Source of the DNA: an uncultured Verrucomicrobiae bacterium
Lineage (GTDB): Bacteria; Verrucomicrobiota; Verrucomicrobiia; Chthoniobacterales; JAATET01
Assembly (NCBI GenBank): GCA_963719495.1
Contig: CAVRCI010000009.1
Span: 96,001 to 160,000 of the forward strand
Length of the DNA: 64,000 bases
Direction of reading: 5' to 3'
How positions within the stretch are numbered: position 1 is the stretch's first letter; each line of letters starts with the position of its first letter. Of this stretch, positions 20,902 to 37,867 are shown one piece after another. The notes beneath the pieces were generated by a model. It had not been told where the DNA came from. It saw only the letters and a program-made list of their open reading frames with translations, and did not search any database. The translations under genes were made by a program, and so were the position numbers.

Positions 20902-21348
20902 GGCTCCGGTGTTGACTCGCTCGCTCCCGCTCGTCTCGCCCTTCGGGCTGCATTGCAGAGCCAATGCAGTCTGCCCCGAGCGTGGACTCGCGCTCTCCCG
21001 AGCGTCTCGCCCTTCGGGCTGCATCGCAGAGCCGATGCAGTCTGCCCCGAGCCTTCCCAGGCTCCGGTGCTCCCAGGCTCCGGTGTTGACTCGCTCGCTC
21101 CCGCTCGTCTCGCCCTTCGGGCTGCATTGCAGAGCCAATGCAGTCTGCCCCGAGCGTGGACTCGCGCTCTCCCGAGCGTCTCGCCCTTCGGGCTGCATCG
21201 CAGAGCCGATGCAGTCTGCCCCGAGCCTTCCCAGGCTCCGGTGCTCCCAGGCTCCGGTGTTGACTCGCTCGCTCCCGCTCGTCTCGCCCTTCGGGCTGCA
21301 TTGCAGAGCCAATGCAGTCTGCCCCGAGCCTTCCCAGGCTCCGGTGCT
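20902..21348. repeat. 174-bp tandem array (2 full units plus an internally deleted third) built from five hairpin subunits
   Basis: Units start at 20902, 21076 and 21250; core cgtctcgcccttcgggctgcatYgcagagccRatgcagtctgccccgagc occurs five times. Confidence 0.95.
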
Positions 21349-23900: not shown

Positions 23901-25364
23901 ATGAAAAACCATCTCTTCACCACCCTCGCCGCTCTCGCCACCCTCACTCTGGCGCTCACCACCCCCTCCCGCGCCCAGTTCACCAACGGCCAACCCGCCG
24001 ACCTCGTTCTCTTCCAGCCGGATTTCACCTCCACGGCCAACGGCTCGTCCGCCCGCCGCGCGTTCATACCCGCCGGAATCGCCATCGATCCGACGACCGG
24101 CAAACTCTTCGTCGTCGACAATGGAAACAACCGCGTTCTCCGGTTCGCGAACGTCTTCTCCCTCGTCACCAACGCCGGTGCGGAAGCCGTGATCGGACAA
24201 ACCAATTTTTCGTCGAGCACAAACGCGACTTCGCAGACCGGTCTCGACATGCCCAACGGCATCACCGTGGACCGCTTCGGCCGCCTCTGGGTCGCCGACA
24301 CCGGCAATAACCGCGTCCTCATGTGGGAAGCCGCGTCATCCCGTTCCACCGGCGCAGCCGCTGACGCCGTTTTCGGCCAATCGACGTTCATCGGCAACGT
24401 CGCCACGACCGCCATCAATCGAATGAACGGCCCACGTTCCGTGCTCGTGGACGAAGCCGACCGACTGTGGGTTGTCGATACCAACAACCACCGCGTCCTC
24501 CGATTCGATTCCATCTCGAGCCAGCTCAACGGGACCAACGCCGATGCCGTTCTCGGCCAGTTGAATTTCACCAACAACTCCTTTGGGACGACCGATTCCA
24601 CTCTACGGACGCCCACCGAACTCGCCATCGACGCCACGGGCCGCCTTTGGGTCGCCGACACCTCGAACGCTCGCGTTCTTCGCTTCGACAACGCCGCAGC
24701 CAAAGCCAACGGCGCGGCCGCCGACGGCGTCTTGGGTCAGACCGATTTCGTAAGCGGGACTGCGGCGCCGCCGCTCACGGCCTCAACTCTCGCGGTTCCC
24801 GTTGGCCTCGCCCTCGCTCCCAACGGCGACCTCTGGGTGTCCGATCTCACCGCCGCTCGTGCCATTGGCTTCTCAAACCCGGCCCTCCTCGCGAATGGCG
24901 CGCCCGCCGCGAAAGTCCTCGGGCAAGCCGACTTTGCCAACGTGGAAGCCGCGACCACCGCCGTCGGACCCATCTTCAGCACCGGCCTCACCTTCGACAC
25001 CGCCGGACGCCTCTGGACCTCCAACAACGGCGGCCACCGCGTCCTCCGATTCACCCCGCCGCCCCCCGCGGCGGCCATCGCCGACACGTCCTCACCGACG
25101 ATCAAAGTCCGCGGCCGCAAATCCATCGACTCCACCCGCAACCGCATCGTCCTCCGCGGCACCGCCGCCGACGACACCGCCGTCGCCGGGATCGAATACA
25201 AAGTCTCCGGTCAGCGAGGCCTCCAGTCCGGCAAGGGAACGACCAACTGGAAAGCCATCATCCGCCCCGACAAAAACAAACGCAAAACCGTCGTCCGAGT
25301 CCGCGCCATCGATGCCTCCGGCAACCGATCCCGCTTCCTCAAAATCAAAATCTTCCGCCGCTGA
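23901..25364 (+). CDS. Secreted NHL-repeat beta-propeller protein with basic Ig-like C-terminal domain
   Basis: Signal peptide; repeats LWVADTGNNRVL and ADxVLGQxxF; ends KIKIFRR. Confidence 0.9.
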   Translation: MKNHLFTTLAALATLTLALTTPSRAQFTNGQPADLVLFQPDFTSTANGSSARRAFIPAGIAIDPTTGKLFVVDNGNNRVLRFANVFSLVTNAGAEAVIGQTNFSSSTNATSQTGLDMPNGITVDRFGRLWVADTGNNRVLMWEAASSRSTGAAADAVFGQSTFIGNVATTAINRMNGPRSVLVDEADRLWVVDTNNHRVLRFDSISSQLNGTNADAVLGQLNFTNNSFGTTDSTLRTPTELAIDATGRLWVADTSNARVLRFDNAAAKANGAAADGVLGQTDFVSGTAAPPLTASTLAVPVGLALAPNGDLWVSDLTAARAIGFSNPALLANGAPAAKVLGQADFANVEAATTAVGPIFSTGLTFDTAGRLWTSNNGGHRVLRFTPPPPAAAIADTSSPTIKVRGRKSIDSTRNRIVLRGTAADDTAVAGIEYKVSGQRGLQSGKGTTNWKAIIRPDKNKRKTVVRVRAIDASGNRSRFLKIKIFRR

Positions 25365-25444
25365 TCCAATCAAGAGCGGCCCGGCAACTGCCAGACGACC
25401 AACCCGACCGGCGAAGCCGCACTCCCCCCAATCCGAAATTCCGC

Positions 25445-26995
25445 CTACCGCCGCAAAATCCGCACCTTCGCCCGCTTCGACTTCAGCCCCACCCCATCGA
25501 CCGCCCGCAACTTCACGATCACGCGCCCTCGATCCTTCCGCACCCGCAGCACGACCTTGAACTTGTCACCGCCCTTGACCTTCGACTTCGCCACCTTCGC
25601 ACCGCGCGCCCGCACCTCGATCCGCGCGATCCCCGAAGCATCCGAAGCCGTCCCCCGAATTACCACCCGTTTCCGCAACGTCTCGATCGTCTTCCGACCC
25701 CGCACCTTGAGCGTTGGATTCCGGACATCGATCTGCCCGCCGCCCGGAGCCGGCTCCACCACCGGATCGAACGGAAACCGCAGCACGCGGCTATTCTGAC
25801 CGTCTGCCACCCACAGGTCGCCATTCTCGTCGACAAAACTCTGACTCGAAAATTCCAGGTTGAGCCTCCGAGCCGACGGTGGCGGCGTGATTCCGCCGCT
25901 TCCGCTCACGAAATCCGCCTGTCCGATCACCACACTCGCGGTCGCCAGCGTCGGAGGCAACGCCACCGTGTCAAATCGGAGCACCCGATTCTGCGTCGAA
26001 TCCGTGACCCACAACCGCCCGTCGTCGTCCGCGTGCGCCCCAGTCGGCTCGCGCAGCCGTTGGGCCGACACCCCCATCGCCTTCTCCGTGAACGAACTCT
26101 GACCCACCACCACATCGGCAAACGCCCCATCCGACCGGATCGCTGCGTTGAAGTAGCCAACAACCCGGTTGTTGACGGAATCGGCCACCCACAAAATCCC
26201 CCGCGAATCGACCTGAACACTCGTCGGGTTGGCCAGCTTCGATGCCGTGACACCCGGTAGCCGGGTCGTGAAGCTCGTCTGCCCAAAGACCCGGTCCGCC
26301 GCCGCGCCGTTCGCCTTCGACAATGCTGCGGTGAATTTGAGAACCCGGTTGTCGAACTCATCCGCAATCCACAGGTTGCCGACCCCATCCGCCCAAACGT
26401 CGATGGGGGTAAACTCGTCAGCCGACGTTCCAGCCGCGCCGGAAAGCGTCACGAAATCCGGACGCCCCAGCACCAGATCGGCATCGGGGTAATTCCCGAG
26501 ATTTGCCGCGTCGCGAAAGAGCAGAACCCGCTCATTATTCCCGTCGGCCACCCACAGATTTCCACTCGGGTCGACCGACAAACCCTTGGGGCGATTGAGA
26601 TTTTTCCGCGTGGGGAAATTTGTCCCCGCGTTGAAGTCGCCCGAGGTGAAGTCGGGTTGCCCGATCACCGCTTCCGCCGCCGCCCCGTTCCGCAAACCCG
26701 CCCGATCCCCGTAACGCAGGACGCGGTGATTTCGCAGGTCACTCACGAAGACCTTCCCGGACACCGGGTCGATCGCGATGTCCGTCGGACCATTCAGCGA
26801 CGACGCGCTCGTCGGCTCCGGGAACGGGTTCGTGAACCCCGGGTCGCCCAACACTAGGTCCGCACTCGCAAACGTCTCGATCTCACCCCGCGCCCCCGGC
26901 ACCGCCACGACCCACGTGAACCCCACGGCCACCACGCACAACCAATTCCACCTCATCACTTTTGCTCCGTTTGTCCTTTGCATTTTCATTGTCAT
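25445..26995 (-). CDS. Secreted NHL-repeat protein with basic Ig-like C-terminal domain (start may be 26956)
   Basis: LWVADGNNERVL-type repeats; ends KVRILRR. Confidence 0.9.
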   Translation of the reverse strand: MTMKMQRTNGAKVMRWNWLCVVAVGFTWVVAVPGARGEIETFASADLVLGDPGFTNPFPEPTSASSLNGPTDIAIDPVSGKVFVSDLRNHRVLRYGDRAGLRNGAAAEAVIGQPDFTSGDFNAGTNFPTRKNLNRPKGLSVDPSGNLWVADGNNERVLLFRDAANLGNYPDADLVLGRPDFVTLSGAAGTSADEFTPIDVWADGVGNLWIADEFDNRVLKFTAALSKANGAAADRVFGQTSFTTRLPGVTASKLANPTSVQVDSRGILWVADSVNNRVVGYFNAAIRSDGAFADVVVGQSSFTEKAMGVSAQRLREPTGAHADDDGRLWVTDSTQNRVLRFDTVALPPTLATASVVIGQADFVSGSGGITPPPSARRLNLEFSSQSFVDENGDLWVADGQNSRVLRFPFDPVVEPAPGGGQIDVRNPTLKVRGRKTIETLRKRVVIRGTASDASGIARIEVRARGAKVAKSKVKGGDKFKVVLRVRKDRGRVIVKLRAVDGVGLKSKRAKVRILRR

Positions 26996-27009
26996 TAAAC
27001 CAAGACGCC

Positions 27010-28497
27010 TCACCGCCGCAAGATCCGGAACCGCTCCCGCTTCGATTTCAGCCCGACCCCATCGACCGCCCGCAACTTCGCGACCACCCGACCCCGGTCC
27101 TTGCGCACCCGCAGCACGACCTTGAACGAGTCGTTCCCCTTCACCTTCGACTTCACGACCTTCGCCCCCCGCACCTTCACCTCGATCCGCGCGATCCCCG
27201 ACGCGTCTGCCGCCGTCCCCCGGATCACCACCCGCTTGCGCAGGGTCTCGATCGTCTTCCGACCCCGCACTCGGATCGTCGGCCTCGTCACGTCCGCCAC
27301 GACCACGGGGTCCCGCGGCCGGGAGAATCGCAGCACCCGGTTGTTACCAGCGTCGGCAACCCAAAGATCCCCGTTCGCTTCGACGTGAAGACCACCGTCC
27401 GAGAGTCCCCCCAGCGGGCGATCACTACTCAACCGGTTGGCGGCGAGACCGAAGTCATCCGAATCGAAGTCACTTTGTCCGATCACGGCATCCGCATCGC
27501 CCCCGTTCGGCTTGCTCGCAACCGAGTTAAAGCGAAGGACGCGATTATTTTGATCATCCTTGACCCACAAGGCGCCAAGATCGTCCGTGTAAACGTCCGA
27601 GCACAGGCTCATCCCCGAGGCGGACGTGGTTTGCACTCGCACGGTGAACGAAGTCTGACCCAACAACCGGGTGGCAACCGTATTCGGCAGCGCACCACTC
27701 GCCGTTTCAAAGCCCAGGACGCGGCTATTGAAAATATCGGCAACCCAGAGCGTGCCGTTCGCATCGCGGTCCAGACCGCGCGGCCCATTCAGCGCCGTAG
27801 CTGACCTTCCAGAATCGTCCGTCATGTAATCCGGCTGACCGTAAACGGCGTCAGCCGGGGCACCGTTCGTTTTGTTCGCCGCATCGGTGAAAGCGAGAAT
27901 CCGGTTATGACTGGAATCCGAGACGAACAGATTGCCAAAATCATCGACGGTCACACCGCTCGGCGATCTCATCCCGGTCCGGGTGAGTTGGGACGAATCA
28001 TCGGTCAAATTGGCCTGACCCAAGACCAAATCAGGTAGGAAAGCGACCCCCGGCACCACAACCCGGTTCGCGGCGTTTTCAAACATCAATACGCGATTAT
28101 GAGAGGTGTCCGCGACCCAAAGCCGTCCGGCCGAGTCCAGGGCAACACTGGAGGGACTGTTCAACGATCTCTCACGACCTCCCGGCAGCGGGTTCCCGTC
28201 GAGGTCCATTCTTCCGAAGACGGCCTCGGCATCGGCGTTGTTCGCCAAGGCATCGTTCGACGCAAACCGAAGAATGCGGTCGCGTCGCCGGTCCACCACA
28301 AAGACCTTGCCGGTCGCGGGATCGACCACGACATCGCGCGGTTCTTCCAAGGAGCTCGCACTCGTTGATCGCAGGGTGTTGGTCGTAAAATCCGGTTGAC
28401 CCAACACCAAATCTGCGTTCGCAAAGGTGGGGATCTGCGCCGAAACCGGCACGGCGACAAAACAGGCGCAGCAAAGTAGAGCCTTCAAGGATTGCAT
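27010..28497 (-). CDS. Secreted NHL-repeat protein with basic Ig-like C-terminal domain
   Basis: Signal peptide; LWVADTSHNRVL-type repeats; ends RFRILRR. Confidence 0.9.
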   Translation of the reverse strand: MQSLKALLCCACFVAVPVSAQIPTFANADLVLGQPDFTTNTLRSTSASSLEEPRDVVVDPATGKVFVVDRRRDRILRFASNDALANNADAEAVFGRMDLDGNPLPGGRERSLNSPSSVALDSAGRLWVADTSHNRVLMFENAANRVVVPGVAFLPDLVLGQANLTDDSSQLTRTGMRSPSGVTVDDFGNLFVSDSSHNRILAFTDAANKTNGAPADAVYGQPDYMTDDSGRSATALNGPRGLDRDANGTLWVADIFNSRVLGFETASGALPNTVATRLLGQTSFTVRVQTTSASGMSLCSDVYTDDLGALWVKDDQNNRVLRFNSVASKPNGGDADAVIGQSDFDSDDFGLAANRLSSDRPLGGLSDGGLHVEANGDLWVADAGNNRVLRFSRPRDPVVVADVTRPTIRVRGRKTIETLRKRVVIRGTAADASGIARIEVKVRGAKVVKSKVKGNDSFKVVLRVRKDRGRVVAKLRAVDGVGLKSKRERFRILRR

Positions 28498-28654
28498 CGT
28501 TAAGGGGTAGCACATCTGGGCAAAAGCGCTTCCGCAATTTTTCGCCCGGACTTCCGGCCGCTCGATCCGCCGGCCGATCGATCCGAAGCCGAAACGGGAT
28601 CGGACCGGTTCAAAGGCCGGGGAGGGCTTCCGCTCACGCCGAAGGTGACTTCAC

Positions 28655-30973
28655 CTACCGCCGCAGGATGCGGAACCTCACCCGCTTCGACTTCAGCCCC
28701 GCCCCGTCGACCGCCCGCAATTTCACAATCACCCGCCCGCGATCCTTCCGGACCCGCAGCACAACTTTGACTGTCCCGTTCCCGCGCACCTTCGCTTTCG
28801 CGACCTTCGCACCCGGAGCCCGCACCTCGATCCGAGCGATCCCCGACGCGTCCGACGCCGTCCCCCGGATCACCACCCGCTTGCGCAACGTCTCGATCGT
28901 CTTCCGACCCCGCACCCGCAACGTGGGTCGCTTCGTGTCGGTCACCCCCGGCGCGACGATTTCCGGCGTGATCGTGAACGCGTAGGCCGCGCCCGAACTC
29001 GCAGCCAAGGCATTGTCCAAGGCGGGGTCATTTACCGGGACAAACGCCGTGCTGTCCTCGAGTCTCGCCCCCACCAGCGCCAACTCCACCGAGATCCCCA
29101 CCGCGCCACCGAAGCGGTCATCCGTCCCGGTGTTCGACGCTTTCAGATAGCTCTGCTGACCCCACACCCCGCCGACCCGACGGAAGACGTAAGCCGCCCC
29201 CGAATTTCCCGCGCCCAGATTCACCTCGCTCCCGTTCACCCCGGTCGAATCGCTGTCCTCGAACTCCGCACCCACGATGAGCGCATCCCCGGAGATCGCC
29301 ACCGACGTCCCGAATTCATTGCCGACCCCGTTGGTCGACGATTTCAGGTAGGCTTGCTGCGGCCACAACGCCCCGCTCCGCGCAAAGACGTAGGCCGCGC
29401 CCGCGTTGTTCGCACCGTCGCCCTCTCCACCATTCACCCCCGTCGCCGGACTGTCCTCGTTCGGAGCGCCGACGATGATTGTGTCGCCCGAGATCGCCAC
29501 AGCGATCCCGAATTCATCGTCCGCCCCCGGCGTCGACGCCTTCAATTGAGCCTCTGGCGTCCATACCCCCAGCGTCCGCACGTAGACGTAGGCCGCTCCT
29601 TCGTCGTCCTCAACGCCATCCTGGTTTCGGGCACCGACCACCGCCCGGTCACCCGACAACCCCACCGAGCCGCCGAAGCGATCCTCATCCCCCGAGTCCG
29701 TCGCCTTCAGGTAGGCCTCCTGATTCCAAATTCCCCCGCTCCGAACGAAAACGTAGGCCGCCCCAACGTTCGTCCCCGTGTCGCCCTCTGCACCGCCCAC
29801 GCCATTGGACGTGCTGTCCTCGAAATCCGCCCCGACCACGAGCGTGTCACCCGAGATCGCGACCGAAATCCCAAACCGATCCCCGCCCCCCGCGTTGCTC
29901 GCTTTGAGAAAACCATCCGGAAACCACAGCGTCCCCGTCCGTCGGAAAACGTAAGCCGCCCCCGAGTTGGCCGCCATGTCGTCCTCCGAGTCCGCTCCGA
30001 CCACCACGCGATTTCCGTCGATCGCCACGGCCCCGCCAAACCCATCCCCGTCGCCGGTGTTCGACGCCTTGAGATACGCCTGAAACTGCCACCCGCCAGC
30101 CGTCCGCACGAAAATGTAGGCCGCCCCCGAGTTCGACGACGAATCGTTCGTCGCGACACCGTTCACGTTCACGGCGTTGCTGTCCTCCTGCGGCGCCCCC
30201 ACCACCGCCGTATTCCCCGAAATGGCCACCGCCGCGCCGAAGAGATCGTTCGCGTCCACCGACGACGCCTTGAAGAGCACCTCCTGCGCCACCGGGTCGA
30301 TCGTCACCGGATACCGCGCCCCCCGCTCGTCCACCTCGATCCGCACCCCGCCATCGCCCGCCGCGACGAACTCGACCGGCAGCCGCCGCCCGTCCGCGTC
30401 CCACGCCAACAATCCGCCGTAGGTCAGCACCACCGCCTCGTCCGCGTTCACGAAGGAGACCGCGCCCGCCTCGACCCGCGGCTTGAGATCGCCTCGCACC
30501 GCCAATTCCAGCCCCAGTCGCGGCCCCGCCGAGTCCCCAGCCGGACGCTCCGTCAACGTCCATCCCTGCTGCAATCCTCCCGCCGAGTTCACGAACCATT
30601 CGTAGATCCCTTCCGCCCGCTTCACCGCCAGCCGGTTCTCATCGGCCCGCATCCAGGCGGCTCCCGACACCGCAGCGGCCTCGTCCCCGAAACCCACCGC
30701 GCTCAACTCCAATCCCCAAGTCCACTCCCCGGTCCGCGCGACGAATCCGCCGTCTTCGAATTCCGCGAGCCAACCCACCCCCGGACGTTCCGCCGCGAAG
30801 CGACCCTCCGACGTTTCGACGAAGGCATGCCGCTTCGCGTCGTAAGCCGCCCGGAGGCCGCTCCAATCCGCGGCACTCACCGCGGACGGTCGATCCGTCG
30901 GAGCCGCGAGCGCCGCGGCACCGGTCAGCGTGAAAATGGAAAGGACTCGGACGAGGAAGGTCGTTGTTTTCAT
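28655..30973 (-). CDS. Secreted FG-GAP (integrin-alpha-like) repeat protein with ~225-aa N-terminal domain and basic Ig-like C-terminal domain
   Basis: Seven YLKASN..D.FG.SVAISGD..VVGA..ED...GAAYVF repeats; YPVTIDP linker; ends RFRILRR. Confidence 0.9.
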   Translation of the reverse strand: MKTTTFLVRVLSIFTLTGAAALAAPTDRPSAVSAADWSGLRAAYDAKRHAFVETSEGRFAAERPGVGWLAEFEDGGFVARTGEWTWGLELSAVGFGDEAAAVSGAAWMRADENRLAVKRAEGIYEWFVNSAGGLQQGWTLTERPAGDSAGPRLGLELAVRGDLKPRVEAGAVSFVNADEAVVLTYGGLLAWDADGRRLPVEFVAAGDGGVRIEVDERGARYPVTIDPVAQEVLFKASSVDANDLFGAAVAISGNTAVVGAPQEDSNAVNVNGVATNDSSSNSGAAYIFVRTAGGWQFQAYLKASNTGDGDGFGGAVAIDGNRVVVGADSEDDMAANSGAAYVFRRTGTLWFPDGFLKASNAGGGDRFGISVAISGDTLVVGADFEDSTSNGVGGAEGDTGTNVGAAYVFVRSGGIWNQEAYLKATDSGDEDRFGGSVGLSGDRAVVGARNQDGVEDDEGAAYVYVRTLGVWTPEAQLKASTPGADDEFGIAVAISGDTIIVGAPNEDSPATGVNGGEGDGANNAGAAYVFARSGALWPQQAYLKSSTNGVGNEFGTSVAISGDALIVGAEFEDSDSTGVNGSEVNLGAGNSGAAYVFRRVGGVWGQQSYLKASNTGTDDRFGGAVGISVELALVGARLEDSTAFVPVNDPALDNALAASSGAAYAFTITPEIVAPGVTDTKRPTLRVRGRKTIETLRKRVVIRGTASDASGIARIEVRAPGAKVAKAKVRGNGTVKVVLRVRKDRGRVIVKLRAVDGAGLKSKRVRFRILRR

Positions 30974-31052
30974 AACGTAAGACCACCATCCCCACCGCCC
31001 GCCACCACCTCAACCAATCGAAAGGTCTAAAAGTGCGTTCGTCCTCCCGGAC

Positions 31053-32078
31053 TCACCCCAGCGCCACGAGCAACTCCGTCCGGCTGCGGACCCGATGCCG
31101 CGCGTAGAGCGCCCGCAAGTCGGCCTTCACCTTCGACACATTCACGTCAAGCAGCACCGCAATCTCCCGATCCGTCCGCCCCTGCAGAATGCGCTCCACC
31201 AGCCTCCGCTCGTCCGCCGAGAGATTCACCACCGGCAGCCCGGCGGGTGCTTCGGCCAGAAAACTCACCCGCACCAACTCACCCGCCGAACCCGGCAACC
31301 AACTCACCCGCGCCAGCCAGCCCCCCGACCCCCGCACCAGTCGCGTCTCCCCGCCAACCCGCAGCGCCTCGACCTCCCGCCGCAGAACGTCCGGCAACCT
31401 CGCGACGGCCTCCCCGCCACCCCACCACCGAGCCAGCTCCCCCTCGGCCACCCGGCTCATCACGACGACCTCACCATCAGGCCGCGCCACGACCACGGGC
31501 ACCGGCAGCTTCCGGATAGTCGTCCGCAGCCCCCGCTCCGCCTCACCCACGACCTCGGCTGCCACCACCCGCCGAAGCACCGCCTCCACCTCCGGATGCA
31601 GCGCCTCGAAAACCGCCACATCCTCCGCGGAAAAGTCGCCCTGCCGCGCTGTCCGCAGGGCCGCCACGAACGCCGTCAGATCCCGGCTTGCCGGGTCCGG
31701 CTCCCAAAATGCAAAATTGATCCCGTAGCGCCAGCCCCCCGGCCTCATCACCTCTCGATAAAACGGATGTCGCGCCAGCGCCGCGCCGCGCGGCAGAAAG
31801 TCGCTGATCTTCCCCACCGGGATCCGGGGATTCTCCTCAACGTAATCGTCCGCCGGATTTCCGATCACGATGCTCGGTGCCCGCGCCGACGTGAACCGCG
31901 CTCCGTCGGAATGGATCACGGTCGTCGCCCGATACCCGATCGCCCGGTAACCGAACGCCACCACGTGCACCCGCGTCAACTTCGGCACCAGATCGAAGAT
32001 TCCGGCGATGAAATCCCTCGCCACCGTCGCGTCCGCGAGCCGCTTCAGCGACTCCCGCGCTCCCGGGCTGATCCTCAC
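31053..32078 (-). CDS. LuxR-type HTH transcriptional regulator with N-terminal sensor-like region
   Basis: C-terminal LSADERRLV..ILQGRTDREIA..L.VNVSKVKADLRALY; GTG start overlaps the upstream stop. Confidence 0.8.
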   Translation of the reverse strand: MRISPGARESLKRLADATVARDFIAGIFDLVPKLTRVHVVAFGYRAIGYRATTVIHSDGARFTSARAPSIVIGNPADDYVEENPRIPVGKISDFLPRGAALARHPFYREVMRPGGWRYGINFAFWEPDPASRDLTAFVAALRTARQGDFSAEDVAVFEALHPEVEAVLRRVVAAEVVGEAERGLRTTIRKLPVPVVVARPDGEVVVMSRVAEGELARWWGGGEAVARLPDVLRREVEALRVGGETRLVRGSGGWLARVSWLPGSAGELVRVSFLAEAPAGLPVVNLSADERRLVERILQGRTDREIAVLLDVNVSKVKADLRALYARHRVRSRTELLVALG

Positions 32079-32710
32079 GATTCCCCCCCGTTCCGAACGT
32101 CCAAGGCAGCGCCAAACTCCGCGACCAGTTGCGCCCGGTTCGCGACGCCCAGCTTGCGAAACGCCCCCGCCAGCTCCGCCTTCACCGTCGCCAACGAACG
32201 CCCGACCGACTCCGCGACCGCTTGGTTCGTCCGTCCCCGGCACACCTCCCGGACGACCGCCAACTCCGCCGACCCCAACAACGCCAACCACCCCAATTTC
32301 TCCTCCACCGACCGCCGACTCCGCGTCAGCAGCACCACCCGAAACGTCGGTCGCCCCAACTCGCGGTCGCCCGGCGGCTGCGTCGTCACCCGCACCGCCA
32401 ACTCCGCCGTCAGTACCCGCCGAATCTCGAGAATTCTCCCCGGACGCTCCGCCTCCAGCAACACCGCGTGCCATTCGTCCCTCGCTTCGTCCGCAATCGC
32501 CCGCACCTGCTCCCACCGCTCGTCCCCGCCGAGCCGCGCCAACAGCTCCTCCGCCGCCGCACTCGCGCCCACCACCCGCAGACCCCAATCCAGCACGATC
32601 ACCGGCACCCGCTCCGACCACAACACCCCCTGAAGCGTCCGCAGAACCTGCCGAGCACCACCCCCTTCAAGCGAGTCTCGATGAACCCGATCTTGCTTCA
32701 CGAGCAACAT
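32075..32710 (-). CDS. LuxR-type HTH transcriptional regulator
   Basis: LGSAELAVVREVCRGRTNQAVAESVGRSLATVKAELAGAFRKLGVANRAQL. Confidence 0.8.
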   Translation of the reverse strand: MLLVKQDRVHRDSLEGGGARQVLRTLQGVLWSERVPVIVLDWGLRVVGASAAAEELLARLGGDERWEQVRAIADEARDEWHAVLLEAERPGRILEIRRVLTAELAVRVTTQPPGDRELGRPTFRVVLLTRSRRSVEEKLGWLALLGSAELAVVREVCRGRTNQAVAESVGRSLATVKAELAGAFRKLGVANRAQLVAEFGAALDVRNGGES

Positions 32711-32863
32711 GATCTTTTATCCCTAATCAGAATTTCACCAAACGCAAACCACCAACCCCCGAAACCGAATTGCCAATCCCGCCCCACCTGCAACAAATCC
32801 ACGATCCAAAATCCGAAATCTCAAATTCTCACCGCCGGCCTCGCCGCCGCTCGGTCGAACCTC

Positions 32864-33541
32864 GTGCCCGGCCTTGTTCTCCAGGCCGTCATGCTCGGCA
32901 TCCTCGTCGCCTACTACGCCGTCCCGGCGACCCGTGGCACCTTCGACCAGCTCACCATCCTCAAATCCGAGGGCGGTTACGCCTTCTCGTTCATCGCGAC
33001 CGCTCTCGCCGGCGGGCTTTTCCCGGAGTCCCTCCGAATCGCCATCTTCCAACGCTTCCGGATCGTTCGGACGAACTTCACCAGCTTCCTCTTCGGCTCA
33101 ATCTTCTGGGGCGGCATGGGAGTCCTCATCGACGCCTTCTACCGTCTCCAGTCTCACCTCTTCGGAGCCGACCCGACCGCCGCCACCGTCGGCGCCAAAG
33201 TCCTCGCCGACATGCTCCTCTTCACGCCCTTCGTCGGCGTCCCACTCGCCGCCACCGCCTACCTCTGGAAGCAGCGCAATTTTGACACCGCCATCTTCGG
33301 CGATGTCCTCAATCTCCGCGGCTACCGCACCCACATCCTCCCGGTCCTCATTCCCAACTGGGCCGTCTGGGGACCCGTCGTTTGCGTTATCTACGCCCTC
33401 CCGGTCGGCCTCCAATTCCCCACCTACGTCCTAGCCCAAGCCTTTTGGACCCTCGTCCTCACCACCCTGACCGCCGCCCCCCCATCGCACACGACCAGCG
33501 ATCGGCAATTGCGCGACCGCCAACCCCACCCAAAAAGGTAG
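32864..33541 (+). CDS. Membrane protein, Mpv17/PMP22-like (start uncertain)
   Basis: Multiple TM helices; KVLADMLLFTP, NWAVWGP...YALP..LQ. Confidence 0.65.
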   Translation: MPGLVLQAVMLGILVAYYAVPATRGTFDQLTILKSEGGYAFSFIATALAGGLFPESLRIAIFQRFRIVRTNFTSFLFGSIFWGGMGVLIDAFYRLQSHLFGADPTAATVGAKVLADMLLFTPFVGVPLAATAYLWKQRNFDTAIFGDVLNLRGYRTHILPVLIPNWAVWGPVVCVIYALPVGLQFPTYVLAQAFWTLVLTTLTAAPPSHTTSDRQLRDRQPHPKR

Positions 33542-33838
33542 GGAAGCCGCGCCGCCGGGTTCCCATTCTTGGTCAGAAGTATCGGGGTTCAATCGAGTTC
33601 GGGATTGAACTTCCCCGGCAGACGGGTGATCCCAAAGTCGCTTGGTAATGAGAGGAATTCCGAACTCCGTGGCATCGTCTTCCGGCCGATGATCCAACCT
33701 CAATCGGCTGAAACCCGATTCTATCTGAAACGGGTAAGGTCTTTTTTGTAGGAAACGTCCAGTTCACGTCATCACCGCCAAACGCCTTCGTCCGCAACCC
33801 GACCCGACCCACGGAACGCGCGGCGCGCTCTCCCTACC
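33537..33838. repeat. Inverted GTAG REP-like pair (REPIN-like) enclosing ~250 bp
   Basis: ggtagggaagccgcgccgccgggttcc ... ggaacgcgcggcgcgctctccctacc. Confidence 0.6.
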
Positions 33839-34115
33839 CCGAACTGGGGCCGTCGGCCTCGTAGGCGGATCGACCCGGCAAGTCGATTCAGACCATACCC
33901 AGTTTGAATCCCACCCCCGCCGCGGGGATCGGACTGCAAGCGAGCCTTGACGTCGAGCCGGGACACCGGGCCAAAAGCTCAATCCCGGAAGGCTGCCCGC
34001 GGCCCATAGCGCACCGTCGGACCAAGCCGGCGTGAAGGCCCACCACGTCCAACCGAGCATCCCCCGGTCGTCGAAGCGCTCATCCCTCATCCGAATCCAG
34101 CACCAGATCACCAAC

Positions 34116-34163
34116 GCGCCGACCGATTAAACGTAACGGCCGTTACGTTTAATCGGTCGGCGC
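34116..34163. repeat. Perfect 48-bp palindrome with no spacer
   Basis: gcgccgaccgattaaacgtaacgg|ccgttacgtttaatcggtcggcgc. Confidence 0.95.
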
Positions 34164-34213
34164 TTTTAGGCCTCCATGCTCCCAAGTTCATCCAAAACGC
34201 GGGGGATTCTCAG

Positions 34214-34267
34214 CCCTGGATTCCCTGTAAAATGTGACGACCGTCACATTTTACAGGGAATCCAGGG
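34214..34267. repeat. 54-bp palindrome (26-bp perfect arms, 2-nt spacer)
   Basis: ccctggattccctgtaaaatgtgacg-ac-cgtcacattttacagggaatccaggg. Confidence 0.95.
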
Positions 34268-34580
34268 ATCGCCGCGCCGTTGGTGCGGGCTATCTGACGG
34301 GGCGGACAGCCGCCGAGGCGAAGAACTTTGGGTCGCCGGAGGCCAGGGGTGCTGACGCCCTGGTGACGGCTTCCACCACCGCTCTGATTCCACGCTCGAA
34401 TGGGCTGGACTCACTACCAATCACACCCATCGTCCCGCGAAAGTCGACCAGTCCTTGCCAGCGCCCGCGATGGCGCTCGCTCTCCCGGACAGAATCGCCA
34501 ACCCAACGAGTGCGCAAAGAGTGTCCCGTCCGCCGTTCGTTCTTCGGGTCCGTTCGATGTGGCAGTCGGGCAGGATTCAA

Positions 34581-34726
34581 CTAGGAGTCTGTCGGACTTA
34601 GAAAAGCCGACGCTCCAGAATGGCGTATATGGCATTTTGATTTTCTCTGAGACATCCGGCGGTGGGCAAAAACGATCAATTTCGTTCGTTTTGGCCCGAA
34701 ATCGCCTAAGCCCGACAGGCTGCTAG
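34581..34726. mobile_element. MITE-like element, 146 bp, CTAG at both ends
   Basis: ctaggagtctgtcggacttag vs reverse complement of ctaagcccgacaggctgctag: 18/21 identical. Confidence 0.7.
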
Positions 34727-36510
34727 CGGCGAATGATCCGGAGTTTGAAGATCTTGGAGCGATTGCCCGCGTTATCGAAAGCGCGGACCTTGACGACCGT
34801 CTGGCGCTTCCTGGTGTTTGGGCGAATCACTGCGCGCCAGCGGGTGCCGGGTCCCTTCGCTTCCTGGAAACCACCCCGCACGCCGCTGGCTTTGAACTCC
34901 ACCCGGTCGATACCGGAGGCGTCCGCCGCCGTCCCGCGAAAGACGACCCGGCGGCGGGTGGATTCGACGCGGCGACGGCCTTTGACGCGGACGGTGGGGC
35001 GGGTGAGGTCGGGTGGAGTCGGGGCGGCGACGGGCAGGATATTATAAGAATAGGCGGCACCCGCTTCGGCGGCGGCGTTGTCGTTGACGGCAAGGGGGTT
35101 GTCGACGCCGCTGGGGGCGCTGTCCTCCAGGCTCGCCCCGATGACCGCGGTGGTCGGGGACAGCGCGACCGCCCCGCCGAAGCGATCCTCGGGATCCGGG
35201 TTGAGCGCTTTGAGGTAGGCGTTGGGGGTCCAGATCGGGCCGGCTCGCTCGAAGAGAAAAGCCGCGCCCGCGCTCTCCGCCGAGTTGTCGGTCGGATCAC
35301 CCCCCACGCCGGTGGCCCCGCCGTCTTCGCGGAAAGCGCCGACGAGGGCGTGGTTTCCGGCGACGGCGACGGCTCGCCCGAACTGGTCGCCGGAGTCGGC
35401 ACTGAAGGCTTTGAGGTAAGCTTCGGGGAACCAGGTGGTGCCGCCGCGGACGAAGGTGTAAGCGGCTCCCGCGCTGGCGGCGGTGTTGCTGGCGGGGTCG
35501 CCATTCACGCCGGAGGCGGAACCCGCTTCGAAGGGCGCGCCGACGAGCACGGTGTTGCCCGAAACGGAGACGGATGAGCCGAACTGATCGCCGGAATCGG
35601 TGTTCGAGGCTTTGAGGTAGGCGGCTTGGGACCAGGTGGCCGCGGCCCGGGTGAAGACGTAGGCGGCACCGCTGCCCGATTCGGTGGCGTCGGCCTGATC
35701 GCCGCCGACGCCGGTCGCCGCGCTGTCTTCGAGCGGCGCGCCGACCACGGCGGTGTCGCCCGAGATGGCGACCGAGGAGCCGAAGCGGTCTCCGGCCTCC
35801 GTGTTGGATCCTTTCAAGTAGGACCGGAACGACCAGATGATGCCCGAGCGGGTAAAGACGTAAGCAGCTCCGGCGGAGCCGGCCGTGTTGTCGAGCGGGT
35901 TGCCGTCGACGCCGGTGTCGGCGCTGGCCTCGAAGCGCGCGCCGACGAGGATGGTGTCGCCCGAGATGGCGACGGCGGCTCCGAATTCGTCGCCGGCGTC
36001 GGAGTTGGGCGCTTTGAGGTAGGCTTGCTGAGACCAGGCAACCCCGGAGCGCACGAAAACGTAAGCCGCGCCGGCGCTCGGGGCGCTGCCATCCAACTCA
36101 CTGCCGTCGACCGCGTCGGCGTCGCTGTCCTCGAGGTTGGCTCCGACGACGAGGGTGTCGCCGGAGATCGCAACCGACGCGCCGAAGACGTCGCTGTCCT
36201 CGGTGTTGGAAGCCTTGAGGTAGGCTTGTTGAATCCAGGTCGCCCCGCTGCGGACGAAAACGTAGACGGCACCGGCGGAGGAGAGGCCGTTGTTAATTTG
36301 GTCGCCCCCGATTCCCACGGCGTTGCTCTGCTCGCCGGGTGCGGCGACGACGATGGTATCGCCGGAGACGGCGACGGCGGCTCCGAAGGTGTCGCTCGAA
36401 TCGGGATTGGACGCTTTGAAGAAGGCGTCCTAGGCGACGGAGCTATTGGCGTGGGCGGACGGAAGCCACCCGGAGGCGGCGATCAGCGCGAGAGGAAGGA
36501 GTCGGTTCAT
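34723..36510 (-). pseudogene. Secreted FG-GAP repeat protein with basic Ig-like C-terminal domain, interrupted by an in-frame TAG at 36430-36432
   Basis: MNRLLPLALIAASGWLPSAHANSSVA*DAFFKASNP continues in frame into the 34723-36318 ORF; ends KLRIIRR. Confidence 0.8.
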
Positions 36511-37247: not shown

Positions 37248-37484
37248 ATGAAGTCCGTTGCCACGCACGAAGCCAAGACGCACCTCTCCCGTCTCCTTAC
37301 CGAGATCGCCGCGGGCGAGGAATACGTGATCACCCGCGGTCGAACTCCCGTCGCGCGACTGATTCCCGTTCCCAATCCTCGGCCCCGCCCGAAAGTGGGT
37401 GAGACCCTGGACGAGCCGCGCCCCGTCCCGGACGAAAGTCTGCGCGCACTCACCGCCGGTGAACTCGCCGCCTGGGGCCTGTGA
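37248..37484 (+). CDS. Phd/YefM-family antitoxin
   Basis: VATHEAKTHLSRLL...GEEYVITRGRTPVARLIP. Confidence 0.92.
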   Translation: MKSVATHEAKTHLSRLLTEIAAGEEYVITRGRTPVARLIPVPNPRPRPKVGETLDEPRPVPDESLRALTAGELAAWGL

Positions 37485-37867
37485 TCGCCCTCCTCGACAC
37501 GTGCACGTTTCTCTGGCTCGCGCTGGAACCCTCGCGCCTCTCGGAGCCGTGCCGGGCTGTGATCGACGACGAGTCGAATCAACTCGTATTCAGCCAGGTG
37601 AGCGTCTGGGAGATCACGCTCAAAAATTCCGTCGGCAAACTCCCGCTTCCGCTCCCACCCCGCGAGTGGATCCCCACCCGTCGGGCCTTCTTTCAGCTAG
37701 AGGCCGTCCAACCGACCGAAGCCGCCATCTTCCGCAGCGGCGAACTCCCCCGCGTTCACGCCGACCCATTCGACCGCCTGATCGCCGCCCACGCCATCGA
37801 AGCGAACTTCACCATCCTGTCCCCTGACACCCCCCTCTCCGACCTCGGAGCCGCCCGCATCTGGTGA
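37481..37867 (+). CDS. vapC: VapC/PIN-domain toxin
   Basis: LLDTCTFLW, SVWEI..K, HADPFDRLIAAHA; GTGA overlap with the antitoxin. Confidence 0.92.
   Translation: MIALLDTCTFLWLALEPSRLSEPCRAVIDDESNQLVFSQVSVWEITLKNSVGKLPLPLPPREWIPTRRAFFQLEAVQPTEAAIFRSGELPRVHADPFDRLIAAHAIEANFTILSPDTPLSDLGAARIW

Follow-up and report, generated by a model that had tools for sequence, protein, structure and literature searches.

Why should five beta-propeller proteins of two kinds, encoded close together in one bacterial genome, end in the same strongly basic domain? The question arises from a 64,000-nucleotide stretch of DNA (positions 96,001 to 160,000 of contig CAVRCI010000009.1, GenBank assembly GCA_963719495.1) of an uncultured Verrucomicrobiae bacterium, called the window here in its full length, in which a preliminary description made from the sequence alone had noted five secreted propeller proteins with one common C-terminal, immunoglobulin (Ig)-like domain. 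This domain, hereafter the tail, is a lineage-specific, modular and strictly terminal polycationic Ig domain, carried by ~50 exported acidic proteins per genome. The role that we tentatively favour for it, electrostatic anchoring, is weighed below after the evidence on its occurrence, ancestry and genomic context.

Results

The tail in the window and in the whole genome

Pfam agrees with the preliminary description that three of the five window proteins are NHL propellers and two are FG-GAP proteins, at the positions it gave (Table 1). All five have a plausible signal peptide at the N-terminus, as had been claimed, and a short Pro/Ala-rich linker ahead of the ~95-residue tail, although in gene 5 an in-frame TAG stands between signal peptide and body. 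The five tails align over 102 columns, 26 of them invariant, with a mean column identity of 69%, which upholds the view that they are one domain; chance similarity is ruled out, because profile matches within the genome reach an E value of 1e-44. The starts proposed earlier coincide with the invariant Asp that opens the domain in the motif D-x-x-x-P-T, and each copy ends in I(L/I/F)RR followed by the stop codon. With 24-32% Lys+Arg and an isoelectric point (pI) of 11.8-12.0 (11.8 in gene 1), the tails are as basic as described (a quarter to a third Arg/Lys), and the absence of a transmembrane helix agrees with the statement that they are neither PEP-CTERM- nor LPXTG-like.

All six-frame open reading frames (ORFs) of the genome to which the window belongs (G000; 4.54 Mb, 16 contigs, 98.6% complete) were searched with a broad tail profile made from 36 copies (alignment A2), matches being counted at a domain E < 0.01. 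The profile matches 48 ORFs on 13 of the 16 contigs, each with a single copy that is always the last domain (48/48). The frame stops at the final tail residue in 26 of the 48 and five residues or fewer beyond it in 42, the longest extension being 24 residues, and, within this genome, the search turned up no copy that is internal, tandem or acidic. The pI lies between 10.5 and 12.0 in every copy (48/48), with a median net charge of +20 over ~95 residues. Signal peptides, judged by a home-made n/h/c rule plus reading, are recognizable in about 42 of the 48 proteins, three of which have them separated from the body by an in-frame TAG; the remaining six ORFs are fragments, frameshifted or ambiguous.

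The three TAG codons lie in gene 5 (36430-36432, 26 codons past the ATG at 36510), in a cyclophilin-tail gene (G000:C9 ~68618-68620) and in an NxxGxxAF-repeat gene (G000:C4:295255-295257), at positions where paralogues suggest Gln or Lys/Arg. Recoding of TAG was considered and rejected, as none of the 53 tRNAs found in the genome has a CUA anticodon. The three codons look like recent nonsense mutations, and pseudogenes are favoured; gene 5, in which the TAG splits the signal peptide from the body, is probably one. Stops inside such tail genes are found in relatives too. The tRNA search by ARAGORN also returned one tRNA-like gene of undetermined amino acid with a two-base anticodon call (530536-530613 on a G000 contig of >530 kb).

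Passengers, linkers and modular exchange

As the preliminary description held, the passengers are not basic: 41 of 44 are acidic, with a median pI of 4.6 and a median net charge of -14. Pfam and NCBIfam scans assign them to NHL propellers (14), FG-GAP_2 (5), DUF7453 (3) and DUF4394 (3), DUF7453 being the equivalent of the NCBIfam 'choice-of-anchor tandem repeat NxxGxxAF', for which two of the three exceed the 50-bit cut-off. Further passengers include DUF7035/DUF7743 repeats, a reprolysin/Mep72-like metzincin (E 2e-12 with the Mep72 model, far under its cut-off), a GSDH/pyrroloquinoline quinone (PQQ) dehydrogenase, a GDSL lipase, a cyclophilin-type isomerase and a frame of 2,858 codons with RCC1, DUF5122, He_PIG, TIG and TSP3 repeats. 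Several tail proteins have a passenger without any family, and two mini-proteins consist of roughly a signal peptide and a tail only (G000:C9:206908-207258 and G000:C6:138076-138507). The linkers are enriched in Pro (median 0.16, against 0.085 genome-wide), and the longest comprises ~150 residues of PTPNPTPD repeats. A PTPNPTPD linker of ~150 residues precedes the tail in the second ORF at G000:C3:109101-114869, where two adjacent DUF7035-type ORFs of 815 and 1,107 codons lie in the same frame with a single TGA between them.

Within the window, tail similarity crosses passenger type; the tail has moved between passenger families as an exchangeable module. The tail DNA of FG-GAP gene 4 is 80-82% identical to that of NHL genes 2 and 3, as against only 38-39% in the 300 bases upstream of the tail, and the nearest match to the NHL gene 1 tail is the tail of FG-GAP gene 5 (63.8%). 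In a tree of the 25 tails that could be labelled by passenger family (23 unlabelled rows were omitted), the label changes seven times, compared with a minimum of three, and one clade (SH-aLRT 97) mixes eight NHL, two FG-GAP and two DUF7453 proteins. The same genome holds about 47 PEP-CTERM tails and two exosortase genes, and none of its proteins bears both PEP-CTERM and the basic tail. One FG-GAP paralogue (G000:C13:312019-313251), 41% identical over 398 amino acids to a tail-bearing FG-GAP protein, ends in PEP-CTERM. Of the genome's four NxxGxxAF 'choice-of-anchor' proteins, three likewise end in the basic tail; 'choice-of-anchor' is a term that one preprint applies to domains of surface proteins found with alternative anchors (bioRxiv 10.1101/2023.03.06.531300).

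Distribution among genomes and databases

A narrow profile, built from the five window sequences, gave 10-65 matches each in 14 of the 16 other genomes of the same family, covering all members of genera g1 (5/5), g2 (1/1) and g4 (8/8) and neither of the two g3 genomes (0/2); 24 genomes representing 15 further families in the order gave no match. When the broad profile was applied to 251 genomes of the order at E <= 1e-08, the family again scored 14/16 and all other families together 7/234, with one or two matches each. Five of these seven outside carriers were examined: G053 has a true basic terminal copy (pI 12.0, ending RIRRR), while two of the other four have terminal but weakly basic or neutral copies and two have internal, acidic ones.

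Terminal placement extends beyond the genome itself. All 22 tail copies in seven 20-kb loci of relatives are terminal, as are all 36 single-domain matches (67-120 bits) in a collection of 5.8 billion proteins, which have at most 22 residues after the tail and a pI of 10.5-12. The same collection yielded nine multi-domain matches with at most 36 bits per domain; their best domain has a pI of 4.1-4.6 in seven cases and 8.1-9.3 in two, and lies well inside the protein in eight. The tail was thus found, as predicted, in many proteins, always at the C-terminus, with signal peptides, on diverse passengers and far outside the local paralogue cluster. Internal or tandem occurrence, which had been held against the idea of a tag, is true of the wider superfamily (up to 46 copies per protein) and untrue of the basic subfamily. 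Among 25 tail proteins from public sources, none is named except one 'chitobiase/beta-hexosaminidase C-terminal domain-containing protein' from a Chthoniobacterales metagenome-assembled genome.

The FG-GAP and NHL passengers were not found in the tail-less genus g3 or in the other families searched. A look for a swap of tags in tail-less relatives accordingly met with no orthologues of the two passenger types there. The FG-GAP and NHL passengers are confined to tail-bearing genera; taken together, the genes resemble a surface repertoire peculiar to the lineage.

Fold, ancestry and charge pattern

No curated Pfam or NCBIfam model reaches its cut-off on the tail. Big_7 (PF17957) scores 15.0-19.1 bits in the five window proteins (15.0 in gene 1) and 20.3 in one fragment, against a gathering cut-off of 24.1; on other tails Big_6 attains 19.7-24.8 of the 27.6 bits that it requires, and an OmpL47-type beta-barrel domain model (NF047446) scores 20.3-24.6 bits in three of 38 scanned proteins against a cut-off of 40. 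In line with the fold proposed in the preliminary description, AlphaFold2 modelling of the gene 3 tail from a 36-sequence alignment confidently predicts an Ig beta-sandwich of eight strands (pLDDT 94.3, pTM 0.80). With this model, Foldseek returned no match at E <= 0.001, the best (1.4e-03, TM 0.6-0.67) being to generic Ig modules, and VIA-align gave Z 10.0 for glucodextranase domain B (rmsd 7.1 over 94 residues) and Z 9-9.6 for sulfite dehydrogenase, CbhA X1 and PKD modules. No type IX secretion system (T9SS) tail was among the best 50 VIA-align entries, a result with which similarity is still compatible.

The nearest solved structures by sequence are Ig repeats of adhesins, namely SiiE (2yn3, E 7e-06) and Bap (7dm0, E 8e-04), and the nearest atlas clusters point, as a lead only, to Big_7 at 0.89. 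Against 1.84 billion representatives, the profile matched 19,423 proteins at E <= 0.001, the best 150 of which are giant proteins with 5-46 matched stretches each. Re-scoring these 150 gave 1,143 domains with a median pI of 4.17, of which 91.5% lie below pI 6 and 0.2% above pI 10, and none exceeds 60 bits. In P0019, one of these giant proteins, six acidic repeats precede a basic last copy that ends in VFRR. Big_7 and Big_13 (PF19077) are present in P0004 and P0036, both within the best 150, and in further matches with tandem repeats. Since the profile matches tandem Ig proteins, SiiE and Bap are nearest by sequence and the Ig fold is shared, the tail is, on sequence evidence, a diverged and recharged member of the widespread Big_7/Big_13-type Ig repeat. 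Although no curated model covers it, the tail thus has relatives in a described superfamily.

Lys/Arg make up at least 50% of 28 columns in alignment A2. In each of the eight predicted strands these columns alternate and face outward, so that both sheets, rather than one patch, would be cationic. Among the 48 local copies, 26 columns reach this proportion of Lys/Arg, and there 602 homologous domains of other organisms have mainly Thr (26.5%), Ser (18.3%) and Ala (10.9%). Residues that are invariant or nearly so are structural to the fold (G35, P14, D39, A85 and S93), and the basic positions drift between Lys and Arg or vanish in distant copies. A few columns are specific for Arg, which accounts for 31 of 32 basic residues at R30, 30 of 31 at R34, 30 of 32 at R71 and 29 of 30 at R102, and the terminal I-L-R-R is well preserved in the core group. 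The evolutionary path is clear from this comparison: a common acidic adhesin repeat underwent recharging at nearly every exposed position and became fixed at the C-terminus.

Search for cognate machinery

The preliminary description saw no cognate machinery in the window, and none was found there or in neighbourhood comparisons. ORFs within 6 kb of all tail genes, clustered within the genome, comprised mostly antisense artefacts and common paralogues and revealed no machinery; across the window and the seven 20-kb loci of relatives, the only recurrent genes are serS and those for a photolyase, a pair of LuxR-type regulators and a membrane protein. The membrane protein (Table 1) was rejected as a partner because it does not track the tail: the tail-less g3 and other families have it, and in four of the eight g4 genomes no copy was found. 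Five secretin-type ORFs are encoded in the genome. A tandem secretin pair (G000:C2:213573-218781) was discarded as a candidate, its orthologues occurring order-wide, including in g3, and so was a 524-aa secretin-like ORF (G000:C4:143092-144663), which has long matches only in G001-G003, G006, G010 and G011 and was not found in the other tail-bearing genomes. The last ~55-70 residues of the latter match many separate ~150-codon ORFs in this and related genomes, which suggests that a small gene of wide occurrence, perhaps pilin-like, is fused to this frame or overlaps it.

For the T9SS, neither SprA_N nor GldM_1st matched in this 98.6% complete genome, a weak negative, as the control genomes were silent too. 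The T9SS tail model PF18962 likewise had no match across the genome, with silent controls, and neither PF18962 nor TIGR04183 matched the five window proteins at E <= 0.1.

Discussion

Comparison with known systems

The type A C-terminal domain (CTD) of the T9SS (PF18962/TIGR04183, Bacteroidota) resembles the tail in being an Ig-like sandwich of ~80-100 residues at the extreme C-terminus of Sec cargo, in sitting on unrelated passengers and in numbering tens of copies per genome. The basic residues close to the C-terminus are a further parallel: PMC10202324 describes conserved lysines in the last motif of type A tails as needed for secretion, and also cleavage by the sortase PorU and attachment to anionic lipopolysaccharide (LPS). 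The tail differs in having no sequence match to the CTD, a host among the Verrucomicrobiae, a uniformly polycationic character (~+20) and no known sortase-like partner. The parallel drawn in the preliminary description holds for a terminal Ig domain on diverse cargo, and nothing found beyond that links the tail to the T9SS: no T9SS tail model matches, and SprA and GldM were not found, the latter being a weak negative.

Big_7/Big_13/Glucodextran_B-type repeats, as in SiiE and Bap, share profile-level homology and fold with the tail, including the D-T-x-P start, the G-T-A-x-D turn and the A-x-D-x-x-G-N-x-S motif. These repeats are acidic, internal and tandem (5-46 stretches per protein) and score at most 60 bits, whereas the tail is single and terminal, with a pI of 10.5-12 and scores of 67-126 bits. 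What is new is the family-wide use of a recharged, terminal version; fold and superfamily are commonplace. PEP-CTERM/exosortase tags are likewise found at the C-terminus of dozens of signal-peptide proteins of the same genome, but they consist of a short motif, a transmembrane helix and a basic cluster, whereas the tail is a folded, soluble domain of ~95 residues without a hydrophobic helix. SLH, GW and LysM modules are reused on many passengers for non-covalent tethering to anionic wall polymers; they have other folds, are usually tandem and are known mainly from Gram-positive envelopes. The tail, in contrast, is one Ig domain, always last, in a diderm.

Possible roles of the tail

The explanation we favour, albeit tentatively, is that the tail is an uncleaved electrostatic anchor that would hold Sec-exported acidic passengers on an anionic polymer of the envelope. 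An acidic passenger with its polycationic Ig tail would be exported by Sec and would then cross the outer membrane, perhaps through one of the encoded secretin systems. At the cell surface, the exposed Arg and Lys residues of the tail would bind a polyanion such as LPS, capsule or exopolysaccharide by charge, the Pro-rich linker would serve as a stalk between tail and passenger, and the tail would remain attached. The charge pattern, the Pro-rich stalks, the ancestry in adhesins and the lack of any machinery found are the grounds for preferring this reading. The dipolar architecture supports it, with an acidic passenger joined to a basic tail by a Pro-rich linker. Binding by charge also fits better than a precise protein-protein signal, because the conserved residues are structural and the basic positions drift, and the Arg-specific columns would suit phosphate, sulfate or carboxylate ligands. 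The tail appears to fill an 'anchor slot', as it is found on choice-of-anchor proteins and is replaced by PEP-CTERM on an FG-GAP paralogue. The missing neighbour machinery adds to the case for an anchor, since a binding module would need none. Several points weigh against an anchor of this kind. It is not obvious why a pure binding module should occur invariably at the end and invariably once, and the envelope-binding modules SLH, LysM and GW are usually tandem, whereas all 48 tails are single. The well-kept final I-L-R-R would appear to behave like a terminal sorting signal. Cyclophilin-type isomerases and PQQ glucose/sorbosone dehydrogenases are usually periplasmic in other bacteria, so the compartment of the tail could be the periplasm. 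Column conservation also overstates constraint, because paralogues within one genome share descent.

Some of these points are better accommodated if the tail is a signal read by an undescribed pathway for sorting to, or attachment at, the outer membrane. Similar to the T9SS CTD, it would be recognized once Sec export is complete, would serve in translocation or covalent attachment, and would possibly be cleaved, an explanation that we regard as unlikely though worth serious attention. A strictly C-terminal, single domain on diverse signal-peptide cargo (48/48, 22/22 and 36/36), present in 10-65 copies per genome as is typical of sorting tags, with conserved terminal residues, is what such a signal would look like; the Ig-like fold shared with the T9SS type A tail, the PEP-CTERM swap in one paralogue pair, the presence on choice-of-anchor proteins and the shuffling among passenger families (seven label changes on the 25-tail tree, minimum three) point the same way. 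Yet no cognate gene was found, the recurrent neighbours being only regulators and one membrane protein, and the profiled secretins do not follow the distribution of the tail. The failure to match T9SS tail models, SprA_N or GldM counts against it weakly, given the silent controls, and the best-conserved residues are structural to the fold, with basic positions that keep charge more than identity. The more specific proposition, that the tail would be the cargo signal of such a system in one Chthoniobacterales-like family, as an independent functional counterpart of the T9SS CTD in the Planctomycetes-Verrucomicrobia-Chlamydiae (PVC) group, derived from an adhesin Ig repeat, is a little more doubtful still. 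If, instead, the tail faces away from the cell and its ligands are polyanions of the surroundings (extracellular DNA, acidic polysaccharides of plants or microbes, clay or silica surfaces), the proteins would be adhesins for matrix or substrate and not cell-anchored. The charge evidence speaks for this as it does for anchoring, and adhesin-like propellers and a biofilm-associated metzincin-like protease among the passengers, together with the two stand-alone mini-proteins of signal peptide and tail, are consistent with it. We consider it improbable, as it leaves unexplained how unrelated passengers stay on the cell and why there are no tandem copies for avidity, and the passengers are not carbohydrate-active enzymes, unlike those of typical substrate-binding modules. 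Least probable in our view is that the tail keeps proteins in the periplasm through peptidoglycan, periplasmic glucans or anionic phospholipid head groups: the cyclophilin-type isomerase, the GSDH/PQQ dehydrogenase and, in a relative, a PD40/TolB-like propeller belong to kinds located in the periplasm elsewhere, but choice-of-anchor repeats, the GDSL lipase, the metzincin and the 2,858-codon RCC1/He_PIG/TIG/TSP3 frame are of surface or secreted kinds, and long Pro-rich stalks suit display at a distance.

Little is known about the placement of surface proteins in Verrucomicrobia and their relatives beyond PEP-CTERM, and our literature searches, conducted mostly at title and abstract level, found no basic C-terminal Ig domain described in Verrucomicrobia. 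Across an entire bacterial family, about 1% of genes share this one unannotated terminal module. Should the tail prove to be an anchor, it would define the surface proteome of abundant soil bacteria and offer a compact, portable display tag; should it be a sorting signal, it would be a pointer to a new secretion or attachment pathway. On either reading, the profile labels hundreds of 'hypothetical' proteins in metagenomes.

Gene organization of the window

The genes that carry the tail and the other features of the locus are collected in Table 1. An internal ATG of gene 2 may be its true start, and the N-terminal ~220 residues of gene 4 belong to no family.

Table 1. Features of the window, with the position of the invariant Asp that opens each tail.
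Feature	Position	Strand	Length	Description	Pfam match	Opening Asp
Gene 1	23901..25364	+	487 aa	Signal peptide, NHL beta-propeller, Pro/Ala linker, basic Ig tail ~25083-25361	NHL, E 5.5e-34	25083
Gene 2	25445..27013	-	522 aa	Signal peptide, NHL propeller, basic Ig tail ~25448-25726	NHL, E 1.2e-28	25729
Gene 3	27010..28515	-	501 aa	Signal peptide, NHL propeller, basic Ig tail ~27013-27291	NHL, E 6.2e-27	27294
Gene 4	28655..30973	-	772 aa	Signal peptide, seven FG-GAP_2 repeats, basic Ig tail ~28658-28936	FG-GAP_2, E 8.3e-75	28939
LuxR/GerE-type regulator	~31053-32090	-		Between the FG-GAP genes	GerE, E 3.6e-07
LuxR/GerE-type regulator	32075-32710	-		Between the FG-GAP genes	GerE, E 0.007
Membrane protein	~32861-33538			Recurrent neighbour	None
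Gene 5	34723..36510	-		FG-GAP_2 protein, basic Ig tail ~34726-35007, broken by TAG	FG-GAP_2, E 5e-69	35010
Antitoxin and toxin pair	37248-37867			Phd/YefM antitoxin and PIN-domain toxin, beside the broken gene 5
Tandem array	20902-21329			Perfect 174-bp tandem array, 2.5 copies, upstream of serS

Homologues of the two LuxR/GerE regulators adjoin FG-GAP tail genes in the relatives G003 and G006 as well (loci L050 and L051, with three copies each). They are best regarded as context and not as machinery, and it is possible that they are dedicated regulators of the tail gene set. The tandem array listed in Table 1 also resolves into units of 71 bp with 91% matches between copies, which have the look of repetitive extragenic palindromic (REP) sequences.

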